Source: a virus (lineage: Duplodnaviria > Caudoviricetes). From it: 64,000 nucleotides of DNA. The DNA is taken from the IMG/VR virus record IMGVR_UViG_3300029705_000009. The stretch is one strand, 5' to 3'. This document shows, piece after piece, positions 4,230-16,275 of this stretch (the first letter of the stretch is position 1; each line of letters begins with the position of its first letter). Position numbers and translations under genes: made by a program. The notes under the pieces were generated by a model. It did not search any database. It was given only the letters and a program-made list of their open reading frames with translations, and was not told where the DNA came from.

Positions 4230-5480
4230 GTGATGGAGATTAATATTGTAGATGCCATAATGGGATCTGGAAAAACGGCAGCAGCAATCAACTATATAAA
4301 TTCATCCGATGATAATAAAAGGTTTATTTATATAACACCATATATAGATGAAGTAAATAGAATAATAAAGCATTGTTCCTCTAAAAAATTCAAGCAACCG
4401 GAAAAATATAATGAAAAAGCTCCAAAGATTATTAGTTTAAAGGATTTATTAAATAAAGGAACAAATATAGCAACCACTCATTCTCTCTTCCATTTATTTG
4501 ATGATGAGATAATTGATTTATGTTATTCGCAAGGATATACATTAATCATGGATGAAGTAACCGAAGTAATTGAGCAGTACTTCATTGAGAAGACTGATTT
4601 AGATTTATTATTGGAGAATTTAGTAACCATAAATGATAATAATCTATTAAAATGGCGTGAAGACCAGCAAGATTATACTGGAGATAAATTCATTCAGGAG
4701 AAACGACTATGTGATATGGACTGTTTAGCTTTATATGGAAATTCAGTTATGCTATGGATGTTTCCTGTAAAGATATTTAGGGCATTTAGGGAAAGTTACA
4801 TACTTACATATATGTTCCAGGCACAGATGCAAAAATACTATTATGATTTTTATGGGTTAAAATATAAATATTTATATGTAACCGGTAATTCATTGGACAC
4901 ATATCAGTTTACAGAAAGCATACAGACATATGTGCATAAATATGATTATAGAAAGCTAATTACAATTTATGATGATGAGAAATTAAATATGATTGGAGAC
5001 TTAGATTATTCATTATCTAAAGGCTGGTATGAAAGAAATAGGAATAATGTTTTAATGAAGCAATTAAGAAACAATGCCTTAAATTTCTTTAATAATAAAT
5101 TAACTGTATTTAATGGCGAATCCTGGGAGAAATCCAAAAGTGAGAATAACTTATGGACAACCTTTAAAGATTATAAAGTTATAGTATCCGGAAAAGGATA
5201 TGCAAAGGGATTTTTACCTTCCAACATGCGGTCCACAAATGAATACAGAAATAGATCTACTATTGCTTATTTAGTAAATAAATATTTCAATCCATTAATA
5301 AAGAATTTTTTTGAGAAGAATGGAATCAATGTATATGAAGATGATTATGCTTTATCAGAAATGCTGCAGTGGATTTGGAGATCAGCCATAAGAGATGGAA
5401 AACATATAACCGTTTATATACCAAGTAAGCGTATGAGAAATCTTTTAACTAAATGGATATATGAACAAAAATACCGTTAG
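4230..5480 (+). CDS. SF2 (DEAD/DEAH-like) helicase-fold protein, candidate replication initiator or origin-binding protein
   Basis: Walker A DAIMGSGKT, motif Ia FIYITP, Walker B LIMDEV, C-terminal QWIWRSAIR (motif VI-like). Next to repeats and DnaA boxes. Confidence 0.7.
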   Translation: MMEINIVDAIMGSGKTAAAINYINSSDDNKRFIYITPYIDEVNRIIKHCSSKKFKQPEKYNEKAPKIISLKDLLNKGTNIATTHSLFHLFDDEIIDLCYSQGYTLIMDEVTEVIEQYFIEKTDLDLLLENLVTINDNNLLKWREDQQDYTGDKFIQEKRLCDMDCLALYGNSVMLWMFPVKIFRAFRESYILTYMFQAQMQKYYYDFYGLKYKYLYVTGNSLDTYQFTESIQTYVHKYDYRKLITIYDDEKLNMIGDLDYSLSKGWYERNRNNVLMKQLRNNALNFFNNKLTVFNGESWEKSKSENNLWTTFKDYKVIVSGKGYAKGFLPSNMRSTNEYRNRSTIAYLVNKYFNPLIKNFFEKNGINVYEDDYALSEMLQWIWRSAIRDGKHITVYIPSKRMRNLLTKWIYEQKYR

Positions 5481-5604: not shown

Positions 5605-8600
5605 ATGAGAAAATATCCAGTATACTATGGAACAAACGCATATGAAGTTCGTTGGACAACTGTTGAAACAATGTATTCGTTTGAAGATTGTTTAGAAGTA
5701 TATCAAGTGAAAGAAAACAAGCTTTTCGGTATTAAGTTTAAATTGTATAAGTATTTATGTACTTATGTGGAAGACGATGTAGAGGATAGTCTTCTAAAAT
5801 CCGGGGTAGATAAAAGCTATGATGATTGGTATATTCGCCAGGCAAGTTTAGTGGTAAAAAAAGCATCGGGAATTTTACATAGTATAAATTTAAAAGATAT
5901 TCAAAAGGAAAAATTGAAATCCTGGGATGGAATAATCCCAGAGTGATGGAATAATATTATAGCGAAAGGTAAATAAAATTAAATATGAGCAAATCGGTAT
6001 TAATATTAAACACACCAACCAGCTGCAATAATTGTCCTTGTTGTAAACATTATGATCACGGTGTTTTTTGCGGAGTAACTGGAGGACTTATTATCTATGA
6101 CATGTATGACTTTAAGAAAAAATATGTGTTTCCAGACTGTCCATTATCTCCTCTTCCGGAACCAAAGGATCTCACTCAGTACACTACCGGTTCTACAAAC
6201 TTGGATAATATAATTCAATACGCACACGATCAAGGTTATAACGATTGTCTTTATGAATTGAATGGAGGAGACTTATAATCACAGCACAAGAAGCAAAACA
6301 AGAAGTTTTATAGGTGGTGATTAATATGACAGCTCAAACAAGAGATGTCAATTTGTGGGGAACTAAAAGTAGTAAAAGAATAAAAAGATTTTTTTAAAGG
6401 AGGTTTATAGGACAAAATGTTAAACGTAAAACCAAAATATTTATTAATCACAGCATATTTGCTCAATATTTTTGATGCAATTGTCAGCGTATTTCTATTT
6501 AAAACAATTGGCGTTGAAATAGAACTCAATCCATGGGGAATTTATTTATATAACAATGGAATTTTATGTTTATATAAAATGAGTGTGACGGCAATTGCTA
6601 TGTTGATAATTAATAAATTTGTTAAAAAATACCCAAAATTAATTTGGGCTTGCTGGGTTGTGTTTGTTGTATATGCAGTGTTAACAGTTTGGCATGTTTG
6701 GGGTGTAACAGCATTATGGTCTGCTGGTGCATTTAGAAATTAAGTATAAGAACAAAATGAAGGGATAAACAATGAGTAAATCAATATTAGTACTAGACAC
6801 ACCGGAATCCTGCAGAAAATGCAAATTAAGGTATGATTCTTATGGACAATGTGAAGTTTGTATTTTAGCAGATGATGTAGTTGATGAATTTTATGAAACA
6901 AATACAAAACCAGACTGGTGTCCTCTCTCACCGCTACCAAGTTTATCTCACTCACAGTTATTGAAGCCAGATAAAGAAGCCATAGAAAAAAGAGATACTT
7001 TAGAGGAAGGTAAAACAGATTTTACTGATGCTTTTAATCAAATTTTCGGAGGAATATTTAAATAGGTATGAACAGAGAAATACTTTTTAAAGGAAAAAGA
7101 CTTGATAACGGTCAGTGGGTAGAAGGAAATTATGGGTTTTTCAAATCTGTAAACGGAAACGAAAAAATGCATCATATCACAACAGAAGACGGTAAGGCTA
7201 TTAGAATCGACTCTTCTACCCTCTGCCAGTTCACCGGCATGACAGATAAGAATGGAACAAAGATCTGGGAGCATGACATCATTACTTTAAACGAAGATGT
7301 CAAGAAGACTTTTGATGTAGATGATGGAGAAGTCAGATATGGGTGGGGCGGATTTTATATTAAAGAATTCTCAACACTTAATAGTTTAAATACTCTTGCA
7401 TCTTATGATTGTATACTTCGTGGCGAAGTAATCGGAAACGTATTTGATAATCCGGAGTTATTAACTTAGGAGGGTAAAAGCATGAGCAATATTCAAACCG
7501 GCCAAGTAAACAATTTTGGTCAAGTAAACAATATTAATAACTCTGTTGTTTCATCAAATACCAGCATTGTTGTTGTAGGGAACGAAGTTACAATAGACGG
7601 CGTAAAAATACCACCCTGTCCTGGCAAAGGACATAGCTCAACCATTATTAATAATAAGGTGTATTTAAATGGCTATGAACTGATCAATGGAAAATGGAAA
7701 AAGACATTAAGAGCCTTATGGCACAAATGGTTCTAACTATAAAATTAGCATTTAGGAGATAAATATGATTCACTATTCCTGTGACTTATGCGGAAAAGAA
7801 TGTAACGACAAAACATTCACATTACCAATAGCAGCTACTTTTATTGATGGAGAGCCTTGTGATCTAATGCCAATTAATATGAATTTATGTAAAAAATGTA
7901 GAAGCGAAATTTATAAGGTAATAGAAAAGAAACTTTCAAAAGAAAAACTTAAGAAACTAAATACTTTAGCTCTTGATATAAAGATGAAAAAAATATTTTA
8001 AGGAGGAGACACAATGAACAAACACGCTTATTGGGCATGGGCAATAACAAACACTTTATGTATAACATCTTGGATTGCCCTAGCTATGGCATTTGACAAA
8101 TGGTGGATTGCTCTTTTCGCATTACTATTTGTTAGTGATTTAAGAACACCTACCCAGTGCTACTTCAGAGTATGTGACACCTGCGGAGAACATAGTCCAT
8201 GTGCAGAAACACCTGAAGAAGCATTAAAGAAAGCAAAAGAAGCTGGATGGACTCATTACGACGGAGCTAATACAGATTATTGTCCGAAATGCAAAAATAA
8301 ATGCGAAAAGGAAACATTATGAGTATAAAGAAACGTTATGAAACAGTAACTCACGAAGTTACGGAAGCAGTATTAGTTGAAGAAACAATGTATTGTGATG
8401 TTTGCAATAAAGTAATTCAAGACAAAGATGTTTATTGGGAAGTTACTACCGGTCATAACGATTGGGGTAATGATAGCATTGATAGTATGGAATGTTTTGA
8501 TGTATGTTCAGAAACTTGCTTAACGAATAAGTTCAGTGAATACATAAAAGAAAGTAGAAAAAATAAATGGAATACAATGTACTTTGATGTACGAAGAGCA

Positions 8601-10893
8601 TAAGGAGACAATATGAATACAACATATCACAAAAAAGAAATAGAAATTGCCGGAGAGAAAATCACAGCAGAATATTTTGAGAGCGGCCTCAATTTCTCTC
8701 CTACTAAACGCAGCAAACTCTCAGAATTATGGGACACCATTACTCTCCCATTCTACAGACTCAGATGGAAAATCAGAGATATTCGTAGAAAAATTCGTTA
8801 CGGAATTCAAAGAATGCAGAAAGATTATGATGACACAGATATCTTTGCACCGTGCGACAAATTTATTGAACGCTATACAAAAATCCTAAAGGAATTCAAG
8901 GAAAACCTTAATAGTCATCCTTGTCATATGACAAGTGAAGAATGGATCGCAATCATTGATCAGATGCTCTTCCACTTGTACTACATGGACGAGAATAACG
9001 TAGATAAGGAACTTAGTAAAGATGTGCCGGAATCATGGATTCCCTGCGGTAAAGCTTCCGATCAGATTATGCTGAAGCACAAAGATGAATTCTTCAAGCT
9101 GTTTTCGGAACACTTTTATGATTTATGGGATTGATTTAGGAGATATGGGTATGAAATATAAAGCCACAGATGCAACTACAAATGAATACAAAACTGCTTA
9201 TAGAAACATAGATGATTATGTTAAAGAAATGAGAGAATCAACACCAGAAGAAAGAAAAAGTATTCAAGAATATATAGACAAGATATCTGTTCCAACAGGA
9301 GTTAATTTCTATGATTTTATTGGTGTAGAATCTTCGCCATGTGATAACTGCACAAATAATCCTAAGAATGGAGGCAGTGGAATTTGTCATTGTACATTGG
9401 GAGCACCAGTGATTTATTAGGTAATAAAAATAAAATTTGCGAGGTAGTAGCTATGGATGATTATAATAAAAATCTTGAATACATTGAATCATTGAAAACA
9501 TTTATGGGTGGGAATAATGAAGATGTTCCGCTACATGGCGTGACTTTAGATGACATGAAGCATATTGTAGAAAGATGCAGAGAGTTTAATCTTCCACAAC
9601 CAGAGATCTTTCCGTGGGTTGGTGGTAATGGTGTTCAAGCTGAATGGGAATATGATTGGTATTTAGAAATTGATAGCTGCGACAAAGGAATAAGTGTTTT
9701 GTTTGTAAAAGGCAAAGACTATGACAATGCCATAAGTTGTAGATTATATGATATTGAGGATGCTTTTATGATGGTAAAAACATTTATTAATAATGTTGTA
9801 GATATTAAAGGCACAAGAAAAGAATAAGATTTTAAGAGGAAAAACATGATTTTATTAAAAGTAATTGGAATAGCGATATTTTCAAGTTTGGTAGTTGCAT
9901 TGTCGGTAATTATATTTCCTGATTTTGTTTATAATCATATAAAAAATAAAAAGGTAGAAAATTTTTTAGAACATGATTTGGTCAAGGCATATTGGATATT
10001 GCTGACTATAGTTGTTGATACATTATTAATACTGGGATTTATTAATCTTATTTGTTAACTAGGAGGCAATATGTTAATTAGAAGCCAAGATAGAAAGAAA
10101 ATTTACAATACTGATACAATGAGCAGTATTTGGATTAATCGAAATTGTATTTACATATCAGCATGTGGAGATGATACAGATTTGCTTGGATCATACTCCA
10201 CAGAAGAAAAAGCACTCAAAGTATTAGACATGATCGAAGAAAGAACCAACGAACCTATTTACATTAATGATGAAGGCGGCGGCGAATATGCGAAGTACTT
10301 CCACTCTTCTTTCCATATGCCGCAGGATGATGAGGTGGAATTAAAATGACAATGAAGCAGACAAGAGAACAATTTTTGTTAGCTTTAAATTCTAATGCTT
10401 ATATTGGCATGTGTACTACAGAAGACATGAAAAATGTTATCAAAGCATTAGACAAACAGATTCCAAAGAAACCGAAAGTTCAAGTAAGAGGAGTTTATAA
10501 TGATGATTCGGGCGACTGGGTGTGTGATGAAGAATGGTATATGTGTCCATCTTGCCAGATGCGGAATGAAGTATATCCAACATGGAAATTATGTCATCAT
10601 TGTGGGCAGATGTTAGACTGGCTTGAAATGAGAACATTAAAATATTGAGAGGATAAAAAATGAGTATTTTTACATTTTTGATGACTATTATTATAAGCAC
10701 TGGTGTAACGGCAATATTGGGTGATATGACAAAATCTGAAGGATTGGAATTTCTTAATCCAATATGGTTGTACGAAAAATATAAAGTCAATTGGTTTGGA
10801 GCCGGATTTCTTGGCATTTTACTTACTATATTAACACTGCCATATTCGATTTTCTATTGGATCTATAAACTTTGTACAGTCGGAAGAAAATAA
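5605..10893 (+). other. Run of small accessory ORFs, many Cys-rich or membrane: 5605..5946, 5985..6278, 6417..6743 (multi-TM), 6772..7065, 7482..7736, 7765..8001, 8014..8322, 8319..8603, 8613..9134, 9151..9420, 9453..9827, 9846..10058, 10071..10349, 10346..10648, 10660..10893
   Basis: Tightly packed + strand ORFs, most with their own RBS. CxxC motifs or TM segments in many. Confidence 0.8.
7068..7469 (+). CDS. YopX-family protein
   Basis: MNREILFKGKRLDNGQWVEG...CQFTGMTDKNGTKIWEHDII...EVIGNVFDNPELL matches the YopX signature. Confidence 0.9.
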   Translation: MNREILFKGKRLDNGQWVEGNYGFFKSVNGNEKMHHITTEDGKAIRIDSSTLCQFTGMTDKNGTKIWEHDIITLNEDVKKTFDVDDGEVRYGWGGFYIKEFSTLNSLNTLASYDCILRGEVIGNVFDNPELLT

Positions 10894-13800
10894 TATGTTT
10901 TAAGAGGTGTGGTAATGAATAAATGTGACTTTTGTACAAAATCATCTCCAGATGGAAAATGTTATTGGGTTTCACAAGGAAGCCGTGAAGATGATTGTGA
11001 AAAAGCCATTCAGAGAATGATTGAAGTTTTGAAAAATATAGGTTGTAATCAAATGAAATTTAAGGAGTAAAGTATGAAACCAGTATATAAATGTGACTAC
11101 TGTTCTAAGATGGGAACAGAGGAAGAAATTAGAGAACACGAGCTTACCTGTATGGATAACTATGATAGAAAAAGTTGTTATACTTGCCAACATAGGGGCA
11201 AGATAAATATGGTAAACAAGCTTGTAAAATATGAGTGTGCTAAAGAAATTGATATTCCGGAAGGAAAGATTTTTGAATTTTGCCAATCGTATGAAAGAAA
11301 AGACAAATCCAATGGTCTGTATGATGATCTTATGACTGGTCTTTTTGGAAGATTTTAAGAGGTGAGATATGGGTGTGGATATTTATGGTAAGCATTTTAT
11401 TTGCAAAAATCAAATGAAATTTGAAGATTTAAAGAACGGACAAGTATTTTGTTTTGTAGATGATATCTCTGAAGATTCTAGTGAGATTAAAATTTATATG
11501 CGTGGTGGTCATACAACCACAGATGGTACAGCTATGGATCTTGAAACTGGAATTATGTATTCATTTGATGAAAAAAGTTATGTAAAGATTTTAGACGTAA
11601 CACTTAATATTAGAAGCGTGATATGTTGAAAATAAAATTTTAAGAGGTAAACATATGGAAGATTTAATAAGAGAACTTGATTTGTTATTGAAGAAATATG
11701 GAATCTCGTTCAATGAAGCAATGAGAATTTATGAAAGAAATAAAATATGTACAAAACGATTAACTCAATGTTACGAGGATGATGAAAAAGTATGGCAGTA
11801 CTATGACAAAGAGAACAATCCTTGTGGATGTGGTAGCAATTGTTTTCACTTTGAATATGACAGAATTGACAATGTTATATATGGAGTATGCAATTGTTGT
11901 AATACAGATATTTATATAATTAAAGATGAGTATGTTGAAGAGAAATTACATACTGGAAAATGGTTGAGTGAATGCTACTTTTAAGAGGTTGATTGTTATG
12001 AAAGTTGAAGACTTAATTGTATCAGCAGAAGAAGTTGCTACTGGTAAAAGATTAATTGGATATGTATGTGGTTGTAAATCATGTCAGACAGCATGGGAAA
12101 GCGAAAAGTACGATAAGACAAGACCTCTTGGATTATTGACTTCTCCAGATGGTCAGTTTGGAAATGTAAGAGTGTATACGGATAATATGGAGTTTGTGAA
12201 CAGATAAAACGTATTTTAAGAGGTGATTATATGGCAAAAGGCAAGCCAAGATGGTATCCGGACAAACCTCAAAACAAAAGGGGTGCATACTGTCCAAGAT
12301 ACGAAGAACATAAAAATGGAATTAGCTATTGTGAACAAGGTAATGCCAGAGATGCTTATGTGTGCAAAGGTAATCCACATAATTGTGTAAAAACAAAATA
12401 TCATAGGGCGGCAAGTAGAAGTAATAAACAGATAAACAATGATGTGTAAAAATAAACTTTTAAGAGGTAATAAAATGATCATTATCAAACCGATTGTTAG
12501 TATTATATTGTTGATTCCATATATTTTATTCTTTGGTGCGTTTAGTTTGGGTGTTGATTTCCCAGATAATACAAGTATTTATTACAATGGTTGGCTTATA
12601 TAACATAAAAATTAAATTTAAGAGGTAATAAATGGGTAGATATATTGAAATAGATGGTCGCAGCTACTACTCTCCTTGCAGTGATTGTAAAGATAGATGG
12701 TGTTATTCATGTGTGATCAATAAATATAAAGAGGATTTGGAATCAGAACGAGATAAACGCGGCCATGCTGAATGGCGTATTGAACAAGAACTTGAACCTC
12801 GTATCAAAGCAGAGAAAGCCAGTTATGATAGATGGGTATCTACAGATACCGGTGCCGAAGCATGCTACTGCTTCTCTTCTTTACTTGATGAACTGATTGA
12901 TTTTGTTGAAAATCCAGATAATGAAAAATATATGGACTGGGAAGATGCAGCTGGTGACTTGGAGCAGAAAATTCTTTATCTGATTAAGAATAAAGTTGAT
13001 GATGACTTGTATTGTATAGCAGATAAGAGTTAGGAGGTGGATATATATGGAATATAGAAGTGGCCAATTGTTGTATGTGTGCAAAACAGATAGCGATTTG
13101 AGAGATGGGCTTTTCGTTCTTTACAGAGATAAATATGAGGGAGATGTGGATTTGAGTTATCACGGAAGTCCTTGGTATGAAACCTTTATTGTTTGTGAAT
13201 ATCTCGATAGTCGTGACAGAGTTGAATTTGGTGATCAGACATGGTGTTGGCGTCCTGCTAATGAGTATATTAAGACTATGCAAAACAAATTAAGAGAGAT
13301 TAAGAATATAGCTAATATATAAAATGCTAATTATATATGCCGAAAAAGGGTTAACAGTAGGCGCTATCCAAACCAGTAACCCTGCGACCATAAATGGGCA
13401 ACACCCAGTGCTGTAAGAGCATGTACGCTGTTAGGGATAGCATATGAAAACACACTTTCTGGAGGTGCTTTATGAAAGACAAAGAAACAATAATGAAAGC
13501 TTTATCAGCGTGTAGTGAGTTTTATTGCTGTGAGTGTCCTTATCAGTATCTTGATGATAAAGAATATAGTTTGAGATGTATTCATACTCTTATTGAAGAT
13601 GTAAATGAAATGTTAAAAGAAAGCAAATAAAAATAAATTATAAGTGATGGTGATTAATATAAAAATAAAGAAATTATTGTGTAGATTTGCAAATTGGATA
13701 TTAAGACAATGCGTAGAGCCTACAATAGCGTTTGAAGAAGATTTATATATCAATGGTAAAACTTATAAATTAGTTCAAGCAACCACAGAAATGTCACCTT

Positions 13801-16275
13801 ATTCTCATGTGACTATTCATTTTGAAGTTATTAGTGGCAAATACAAATAGAGTTTTAAGGGGTAAATTATGAAATACAGATACGAATTTGAAGGAGACGA
13901 ATATATTGTCAAAGGTTTTTGTAGTGATTGTCCACTTAGTTATGTAGATTATGACGGATATGGTGGTCACGAAATTTGTTGTGTCTTACATGCAAGATAT
14001 GATGAATGCCCATTGGTAGAAGTAACAGATTAAAAATAGAGTTTTTAAGGTGGGGTTAAAAATGCATATTTCAAGCAATAAACATATTGGATCTTACGCT
14101 GGTGGTACATACGAATATCTTGAAATCAAAGAATATAAAGAATGTTGCTGCTGTAGGCACTTTTCTGATAATTGGCATGAAGAACGCTTTGAGTGTTTGA
14201 ATGTTAATAGAAAAGACGATGGCGATTGTTATGAAGATTTTTAAGAGGTGATATTGTGGATGTATTAGGTAGAAAAATTGTATTAACACGCAAACCACAT
14301 ATATGTTTTGGGTGTGGTAGAGAATTTTCAAAGGGTACAAATATGGAGAGGTCTTGTGTTGTTGATGGTGGAGATATGTGGACTTGTTATCTGTGTCCGA
14401 CATGTATTGATATCGTTAGTGCAATGAGATATGATGACGAATTTGGTTACGGAGATTTAAGAGAAGAAGCATTAGAAAGAGAAAATAATAGCGAATAAAA
14501 CAAACTTTTAAGAGGTGAAAAATGGAAGTATCTAAGATTTATTCAATGATTTATGATAGTAAAAAATATGGCAACGATGGTTACGGTGATTACTTGGGCG
14601 AATTTAAAATAGTTAAGCAACTCAGAGAAGATGCTTATGTAGATGATTTCATTGGTGTTAATACTGAAACTGATGAAGTGTGTTTTGTGCTTTCAAGAGA
14701 GGTATGCGGATATGGTGGCGGTATTGCTTATCAGGTTATTCCCATTCCAGAGTTAACATTGAAGCAATAAAAACAAAATTGTTAGTGGTGAGGTAAATTA
14801 TGAGTAGAGGTGTACTTAGAGACGGATCTAGCGTATATAAAGAAATAAGAGAAAAACGTGTTGAGGATGTAATAATTAGAGCATCTAATAAAGCAGGTAT
14901 TACTAAGAGCGATTTATCTGATGCCTTTAAAGAAAAAGGATTTTTAGGTGTTTACAATCTTGGCATGATGCATATGTATGAGTATTTGAAAGGGGAAAAA
15001 GTGTAATGAATATTATTGAAAAACACATAATTGGAGAACTTTATAACAACATACTAACCAAAGGAGAATATCCTAAATTTGGTTCACCGGAATGTAATTG
15101 TAATAAATGTATGTTTTACAATGTTACATGTCCTCCATCTCCACATCGTGCTGGATGTTTTCACGGATGGAAAAAAGAAGAAAGTTAAGAGGTTGAAAAT
15201 GCGAGAACCAATTTATAGTAAGCAAGGTGAAGAGTTAAAAAGCACTATTTCAAATTTAATTTCTAGCCATAACACTTTATGTTCTATTGAAGAAGCATTT
15301 CAGGAAAACAAATATGCCAAACAATATTTTGAAGATGCAAGGCAAAAAGTTTTAGAGTCTGGTAATCAAAGTTTGGCAGCTATGTATGCTATTGCAATAG
15401 AAAATATGTCTAAATTTATTGAAGACAGTCAAGAGGTGGATTATGAAGTGTCCGAATTGTGGCAGTAATAAAATATTTAATTGTATCAATAGTCTTGCAT
15501 ATGCTCGTCTAAGATATTTCGAATGTGTAGAATGTGGCCATCAAAGTAGAAAAATAAAGATTGAAAAATTTACATGTGTCAATCATAAATCTGAATGGGA
15601 AATTGAATTAGAAGAATTAGAAAAAGAATGGGAATGGAGTTAAGAGATAAAATATGGCAAAAGTTACATTAAAAGATATTAAAATCCCAAATACTTGCGG
15701 AGAATGTAATTTTATTGGACGTTATGAAACTGGTCTATACGCTCGTAATCCACATTGTTGTTGTGAGTTGATGTGGGGTTTAAAAGAGGAAGACTATAAA
15801 GTTGATAAGAATTCACTTGATGAAAATTGTCCTCTAAAGGTTTTATTAGGTGCGAATAAATCCTGGTACGAAAAGACAGACTTATCTTCTATTGTTCGCA
15901 TTTCATTAAGCGATGATTTCATAGTTGACTACGACAAATCCAGAGGAATGTACAGAGTAAGCGTCTTTGATGACGGTCACTTCTGGGACGAGTTCTGGTT
16001 TGATGCTTATGAGGAGAAGGAAGTAGAAAATATATATCTAGTCTATGGCAATATAGAAGAAAGTGGAGATACTGATTCTTGGGTTGAAGCTATTTTCGAC
16101 AATAAAGAACAGGCGTTGTCTTGTGCAGAATATCTTAATTTAATAAAAAATCAAGAGAATGTAAGCTACTATGCATCTGGTTACGATTGGCATATGAACA
16201 AGATGGATTATGTAGAAGAACTGAAGAAGTTAAAAGATGGTAAATAAAAATTATATTTAAAGTTGAGGTTACATA
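9820..16275 (+). repeat. Dispersed gene-junction repeat (A)AAAA-N5/6-TTTTAAGAGGT
   Basis: Exact TTTTAAGAGG at 9830, 10898, 11353, 11638, 11979, 12214, 12458, 14239, 14506. Variants at 12617, 13853, 14043, 15185, ~16256. Confidence 0.85.

Follow-up and report, generated by a model that had tools for sequence, protein, structure and literature searches.

A dyad-symmetric site between small genes of SPbeta-like phages as a probable point of spacer-matched gene exchange

The phage DNA considered here, a stretch of 64,000 nucleotides from IMG/VR virus record IMGVR_UViG_3300029705_000009 (the window), corresponds to C1:36947-100946 of an SPbeta-like provirus of 153,849 bp, 88% complete, whose end adjoins a host triosephosphate isomerase gene. 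Junctions between small genes in this prophage carry a dyad-symmetric element of 16 bases, TRAAA-N6-TTTYA (the site). We propose, with a probability of about 0.7, that it serves spacer-matched site-specific recombination, most likely of the tyrosine type, at ordered addresses, by which related phages replace genes slot by slot. The anatomy of the site is seen directly; breakpoints on sites, the matching of spacers, their conserved order and one exact inversion come from relatives, where the evidence is strong, the window itself being a decayed example.

Breakpoints, spacers and spacer order in related phages

Motif scanning showed that many other phage contigs also carry arrays of the site; one such scan of genome contigs gave mostly single matches in unrelated genomes. 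Across this family the core is flanked by a weak extra A/T at each side, both arms allow the same A/G change in mirror image, and whole genomes hold 10-61 perfect copies, mostly intergenic. An earlier note on this DNA, made from the letters alone, gave the spacer as 5 or 6 nt, and only the longer form stands: the family has 84 perfect N6 sites as against 2-9 for each other spacer length from 2 to 12, and SPbeta has 17 in 50 kb as against 0-5 for other lengths. A 5-nt class was therefore rejected, since N6 alone is enriched across the family. Within site-rich genomes all spacers are distinct (41/41, 32/32 and 37/37), which we do not count as evidence because chance alone would, roughly estimated, produce only about one duplicate.

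Exchange was assessed in 27 related loci, mostly from human-gut strains, which together yielded 447 distinct block ends. A site lies at 126 of these (28%), compared with 8.7% at random. Left block ends cluster where the left arm begins (offsets -2 to +5) and right ends where the right arm finishes (+14 to +19), and the sequence shared between loci usually stops right at the arm, excluding the ribosome-binding site (RBS). Of 72 junctions with a site 62 are breakpoints, compared with 113 of 219 that lack one (p=8e-8), and the suggestion that the site marks recombination crossovers at gene boundaries is thus borne out in relatives. L117 and L118, both of which encode a homolog of a 109-aa gene of the window, are 99.95-100% identical outside the array that lies between mrpR and the ligase gene, whereas most of their array genes differ and the blocks that they share mostly begin or stop on sites. 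One clean insertion, of 893 bp, is likewise located at a site.

The spacer is usually common to both partners of an exchange. Where two junctions share their downstream flank and differ upstream it is identical in 87 of 100 comparisons, in the converse arrangement in 35 of 44, and at in-register breakpoints in 100 of 105, compared with 0.9% of unrelated junctions; a few exchanges join spacers that differ by 2 mismatches. Such sharing would follow if strand exchange depended on identical spacers, which is the rule for Cre and Xer recombinases. For the pdif sites of Acinetobacter plasmids the requirement has been shown (PMC13141974).

The best single sign of site-specific exchange is an inversion in L133, where a 139-bp segment flanked by two sites in inverted orientation lies the opposite way round to that of five relatives. 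Inverting L139 in silico within the spacers yields both L133 sites base for base, with their arms swapped, and the inverted form matches L133 at 210 of 225 positions, the uninverted form at 121 of 225. The inverted repeat is hardly longer than 16 bp and contains arm mismatches. Bounded by inverted TATATT/AATATA sites, the invertible segment (L133:10730-10884; L129:10404-10558) holds the beginning of a gene for a C5 DNA methyltransferase together with its RBS, and is a possible on/off switch for that gene.

These observations bear on three other explanations. The site could be a regulatory, protein-binding palindrome at which genes are swapped by homology-driven recombination, through RecA or a phage annealing protein, as in the PeSL cassettes of T4-type phages. 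Identical 16-mers, often together with a similar RBS, do provide short homology, PeSLs do shuffle genes in this way (PMC2839356), and both spacer matching and conserved order would follow. We nevertheless consider homology-driven exchange unlikely, as the shared sequence seldom extends beyond the arm to the RBS, the L133 inversion, resolved inside the spacer, took place over about 16 bp whose arms contain mismatches, and some exchanges tolerated 2 spacer mismatches; in addition, no Sak4-type (AAA_24) gene was found in the studied genome, which is 88% complete, other annealing families not having been searched. Alternatively, a nuclease might make a staggered break in the spacer and DNA ligase might join matching overhangs, like a natural Golden Gate assembly. 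Such cut-and-paste would account just as well for spacer matching, order and precise inversion, and the arrays adjoin the phage ligase gene in several relatives. It is nonetheless highly improbable, given that no candidate nuclease was identified, that 15-60 cuts in its own genome would endanger the phage, and that an intact extra tyrosine recombinase is present.

A purely regulatory role, as operator, roadblock or translational control element, with breakpoints tolerated because they fall at gene boundaries, would account for the fixed distance of the site ahead of start codons, and the phage does encode a homolog of the MrpR/SroF repressors, which bind A-tract boxes (bioRxiv 2025.11.27.690993; PMC10516654). 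However, junctions with a site break more often than other junctions, an operator would not hold one spacer across many different flanking genes, promoter-like sites are no more frequent there than expected (36 vs 43), and the SroF box is a sequence of 24-26 bp that is read by a monomer. Spacer matching and the L133 inversion, which the earlier note's alternative of translational control leaves without explanation, largely refute regulation as the sole function, and we regard it as very unlikely; the site may still have a second, regulatory role.

Spacers also keep their order. Over all loci the order of shared spacers is concordant in 598 pairs and discordant in 11. Three phage genomes share 13-23 spacers pairwise, with order kept in 450 of 451 pairs, while a homologous downstream gene is found at only 1 spacer per pair and the slot genes are almost all unrelated. 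The studied genome has 8 of 18 spacers in common with one of these three, G011 (null mean 0.7, max 5), and no homologous downstream gene, and the run ATAAAA, ATAGAG, ATTATA of the window recurs in the same order in L118, L040, L124 and L218. Taken together, same-spacer exchange and conserved spacer order indicate that genes are replaced within fixed slots. Neighbouring spacers are more alike than in shuffles, above all at position 1 (0.46 vs 0.25), which suggests that new addresses may be born by insertion at partly matching ones.

The earlier note had pictured an integron-like array, in which single-gene circles would be excised and inserted in any order and the spacer would be irrelevant. 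The units do hold single genes, one insertion joins non-identical spacers, and duplicated addresses flank some genes, another such case being in L308 and that of the window being ATAGAG on either side of a 54-aa gene, a footprint that would be expected of insertion at one address. Free shuffling of half-site units does not, however, agree with a spacer order that is conserved or with the near-constant need for the same spacer; there is no long palindrome of the attC type, and the candidate enzyme scores 45 bits where the IntI model (TIGR02249) has a cut-off of 265. A true integron-like array can therefore scarcely be the explanation.

Outside the window, a cluster of well-kept sites on the left arm of the genome (G000 C1:19670-21045; L002) apparently contains the spacer pair GGATAA/TGACGA twice, around different genes. 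The GGATAA/TGACGA series and the ATAAAA series lie on one arm in G011 and on opposite arms in the studied genome, suggesting a large rearrangement.

The site in the window

The ten-base sequence TTTTAAGAGG, which the earlier note had counted nine times, does have 9 exact copies, at 9830, 10898, 11353, 11638, 11979, 12214, 12458, 14239 and 14506. All are confined to 9830-14515, and a scan of both strands of the whole 153.8-kb genome, late genes included, found no other. The five junctions quoted there, and the three genes running into a Phe-stop end at 11358, 11984 and 14244, are as written. The palindrome is, however, poorly conserved in the window, as only 2 of 12 junctions examined are perfect 5-6-5 sites (11627, 12447), the remainder being mostly decayed, with the left arm largely lost at 11353, 11979 and 14239. 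Some sites have spacers of 4, 5 or 7 nt, which look like decay products. The hexamer AGAGGT, which had been read as part of the junction, was rejected as a component of the site, being a variable Shine-Dalgarno sequence (the RBS) that trails the right arm. In surviving left arms TRA often doubles as the stop codon of the upstream gene, and the gaps, mostly of 10-30 nt, hold the 16-bp dyad.

A survey of all gene starts found the dyad followed by the RBS on both early arms of the genome, and the site extends beyond the region to which it had been assigned, to 6381 and 7985 in the window and to C1:19.7-31.8 kb on the opposite arm. Between 9.4 and 16.3 kb a site with at most 1 mismatch precedes 10 of 27 gene starts, compared with a mean of 1.2 and a maximum of 5 when the RBS was held fixed and the remainder shuffled; ahead of late-region genes it is found at 1 of 70 starts. 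An origin from stop codon, Shine-Dalgarno sequence and AT content was rejected on this control. An Rfam search of the junctions gave no relevant match, and no Pfam or PHROG match points to an informative function for the slot genes. The coordinates are collected in Table 1.

Table 1. Sites and slot genes, in window coordinates
Feature	Position	Strand	Details
Perfect site	6381..6396		Outside the region first noted
Perfect site	7985..8000		Outside the region first noted
Decayed site	9425..9440		2 mismatches in right arm; spacer ATAAAA; shortly before the region first noted
Decayed site	9819..9834		Left arm with 2 mismatches; RBS after right arm
Decayed site	10887..10902		Left arm with 2 mismatches
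Right arm alone	11342..11357		Left arm lost in 3' end of gene 11074-11358 (GRF*)
Perfect site	11627..11642		Spacer ATAAAA (family address); TGA is stop of gene 11369-11629
109-aa slot gene	11655..11984	+	No Pfam or PHROG match
Decayed site	11968..11983		Within 3' end of 109-aa gene (ECYF*)
Site	12205..12218		Spacer cut to 4 nt
72-aa slot gene	12231..12449	+	
Perfect site	12447..12462		Spacer ATAAAC; TAA is stop of 72-aa gene
Site	12606..12621		1 mismatch; spacer ATTAAA
Decayed site	13628..13643		2 mismatches; spacer ATAAAT; TAA is stop of gene 13472-13630
Site	13842..13857		1 mismatch; spacer ATAGAG (family address)
54-aa gene	13869..14033	+	Spacer ATAGAG on either side
Site	14031..14047		Spacer ATAGAG; extra T in right arm; TAA is stop of 54-aa gene
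Right arm and spacer	14228..14243		Spacer GAAGAT; left arm lost in gene 14062-14244 (YEDF*)
80-aa slot gene	14256..14498	+	
Site	14496..14510		5-nt spacer, 1 base short of family address ACAAAC; TAA is stop of 80-aa gene
Decayed site	14768..14783		2 mismatches; TAA is stop of gene 14522-14770
Site	16245..16260		1 mismatch; spacer ATTATA (family address); TAA is stop of gene 15654-16247

That genes move between contexts, as had been supposed, is supported by homologs of one window gene, the 72-aa gene, that are bounded by sites in unrelated neighbourhoods. Homologs of the 109-aa gene (63-76% amino acid identity) occur in unrelated neighbourhoods of other SPbeta-like phages. Those of the 72-aa gene (78-83% nucleotide identity) occupy at least three unrelated contexts, with a site upstream in all and also downstream in two of three context groups, the spacers being family spacers, and elsewhere a homolog of the 80-aa gene (83% identity) begins at a site with spacer ATAAAA. 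Homologs of the 72-aa gene are also found in L289-L297, which belong to another phage group; there they adjoin a Tn916-type Xis/Int pair and follow a decayed site whose spacer is TACGAA.

Other features of the window were noted in passing. At positions 13335-13440 lies a non-coding element, about 105 nt long, which shares 88% identity with L011:6052-6155 of another phage and precedes a gene in both; with predicted stems and no Rfam match, it is a candidate structured RNA or leader. Two minus-strand genes (1297-1827, 176 aa; 2575-2991, 138 aa) encode products that resemble each other at the N-terminus and have a high content of Lys, Ser and Thr, and the 138-aa product has no Pfam match. The right early arm opens with a YonV-like gene of 415 aa (4233-5480) that weakly matches DEAD helicases.

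Proposed mechanism and candidate enzyme

In the model that we favor, spacer-matched recombination at ordered addresses, the two symmetric arms would bind protein and strands would be exchanged across the 6-bp spacer, so that only the same or nearly the same spacers recombine and each spacer acts as an address. Genomes would meet by superinfection of a lysogen or by co-infection, and crossovers at two shared addresses would swap the genes between them, without disturbing overall order or the core genome. If a circle or a misaligned genome recombined by one crossover only, an insertion with a duplicated address would result, and inverted addresses would give inversions. Since the left arm often supplies the upstream stop and the RBS follows the right arm, an incoming gene would arrive expressible. 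We infer the chemistry, the enzyme, the exchange between genomes and any remaining function of the mostly decayed sites of the studied prophage.

The earlier note had placed a tyrosine recombinase outside the window, and an intact extra one is indeed encoded there, at C1:8669-9679 beside mrpR. In the studied genome a PF00589 gene, a 422-aa gene (yopQ position) and a PF22822 MrpR homolog stand in a row, followed by the DNA ligase gene, a row that matches the yopP-yopQ-yopR(mrpR) layout of SPbeta. The recombinase, of 336 aa and at the yopP position, retains all six catalytic residues (R188, K212, H281, R284, H307 and Y316), unlike MrpR, a catalytically dead relative (PMC10516654). It is XerC/XerS-like yet falls below every NCBIfam cut-off, including those for XerC, XerD, XerS and IntI. 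The only other PF00589 gene of the genome lies at the prophage end and is likely the integrase. Related phages also have a second tyrosine recombinase with conserved catalytic residues besides the likely integrase, and homologs of the 336-aa protein occur in many of them, including the site-rich L117; the related-locus search by itself recovered no relatives of this protein or of the 109-aa gene. An extra recombinase is thus a common feature, and may be what acts at the site. Some of the site-richest genomes carry within their arrays a different intact recombinase, of 257-260 aa. Given the remainder of the model, the chance that the 336-aa YopP-position protein is the enzyme acting at the site is a little under one half in our estimation. 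In the clade of G013 and L129-L147 the left arm often has G and the right arm C, whereas G002, G006 and G011 have almost only the A/T form; this difference may reflect a different enzyme specificity.

Several points weigh against this model. Breakpoints in relatives, which the earlier note expected at the motif, fall there for part of the set only: 72% of block ends lie off-site and, of 17 clean indels, a single one is cleanly bounded by sites, so that other routes of exchange clearly also act. Pair and comparison counts share ancestry and are not independent events, and the L133 inversion is known from one assembly only. All retrieved copies of the studied phage align end to end as one block with no rearranged variant, exact-protein look-ups for it returned the same strain only, and no breakpoints were found among G003, G007 and G011, which are one strain. 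The genome-wide number of perfect sites (15) is barely higher than the 7-14 found in shuffles, and the majority of window sites are decayed. Perfect direct repeats with identical spacers persist 540 bp apart in the left arm of the genome, which means that excision in cis must be rare. The arms, of 5-6 bp, are short next to the 11-bp arms of dif. Finally, several of the viral genomes with the closest homologs of the 336-aa enzyme have few perfect sites (10-13), and the richest whole records (47-61 perfect sites) encode a different, 257-aa recombinase or are incomplete.

A broader proposal, which is tentative and to which we give somewhat less than even odds, is that SPbeta-like phages run a dedicated, phage-encoded address system, with dozens of mutually incompatible, ordered sites served by one tyrosine recombinase that would swap accessory genes between genomes, one slot at a time, and would also flip small switches such as the methyltransferase start. 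A literature search, mostly without subscription journals, found no description of the motif in phages. Exchange at such sites could explain the alternative anti-defence genes at one SPbeta-like locus (gad1/gad2, bioRxiv 2023.05.01.538930). How phage genomes come to be mosaic precisely where genes meet has long been asked, and the usual answer is illegitimate recombination combined with selection; here a large phage group, the model phage SPbeta included, appears to have built-in points of addressed exchange. If this is true, the yopP-position recombinase gains a substrate, and the phages could be a natural source of orthogonal recombination sites.

Comparison with known systems

Integrons combine the recombinase IntI with an attI site and long, folded attC sites. 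The array described here resembles them in its small, promoterless single-gene units and in having a tyrosine recombinase in the same replicon, but neither IntI nor a long, folded attC was found, nor was a single insertion point, and the order of addresses is fixed rather than shuffled.

The PeSL cassettes of T4-type phages are long repeats, made up of a promoter and a stem-loop, in hypervariable regions (PMC2839356). With these the site shares a repeated intergenic element that reaches from the upstream stop to the RBS, gene exchange at that element and a place in hypervariable phage regions. It differs in being a spacer-specific dyad of 16 bp with neither promoter nor hairpin; promoter or terminator content of the PeSL type was rejected, as the repeats do not each hold a sigma70 promoter and a stem-loop. 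The SPBRE/SroF operators (MrpR, YopR) are promoter-region boxes of SPbeta-like phages (PMC10516654; bioRxiv 10.1101/2025.11.27.690993), and thus belong to the same phage group, with an mrpR homolog and AT-rich, repeated intergenic DNA. However, those operator boxes are read by a catalytically dead monomer, whereas the site lies in tight gaps within operons, is dyad-symmetric and marks crossovers, and both its shape and its position differ from the published box.

The closest likeness in function is to the pdif/dif modules of Acinetobacter plasmids, in which accessory genes lie between short sites acted on by host XerC/XerD, the crossover falls within the site, the spacer is identical or nearly so, and modules are replaced, excised or inverted (PMC13141974, PMC6449649). 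Here, too, accessory genes lie between sites with a 6-bp spacer whose identity governs recombination, as comparison of relatives indicates. In contrast, pdif is 28 bp long, with distinct 11-bp XerC and XerD arms and alternating C/D modules, a form that is absent here, where conservation is limited to symmetric arms of 5-6 bp with another sequence. Moreover, up to about 60 sites occur per phage genome in conserved order, often overlapping the upstream stop and abutting the RBS, and the enzyme is probably encoded by the phage. The site works like pdif modules, yet it is a member of neither the pdif, the integron nor the PeSL class.

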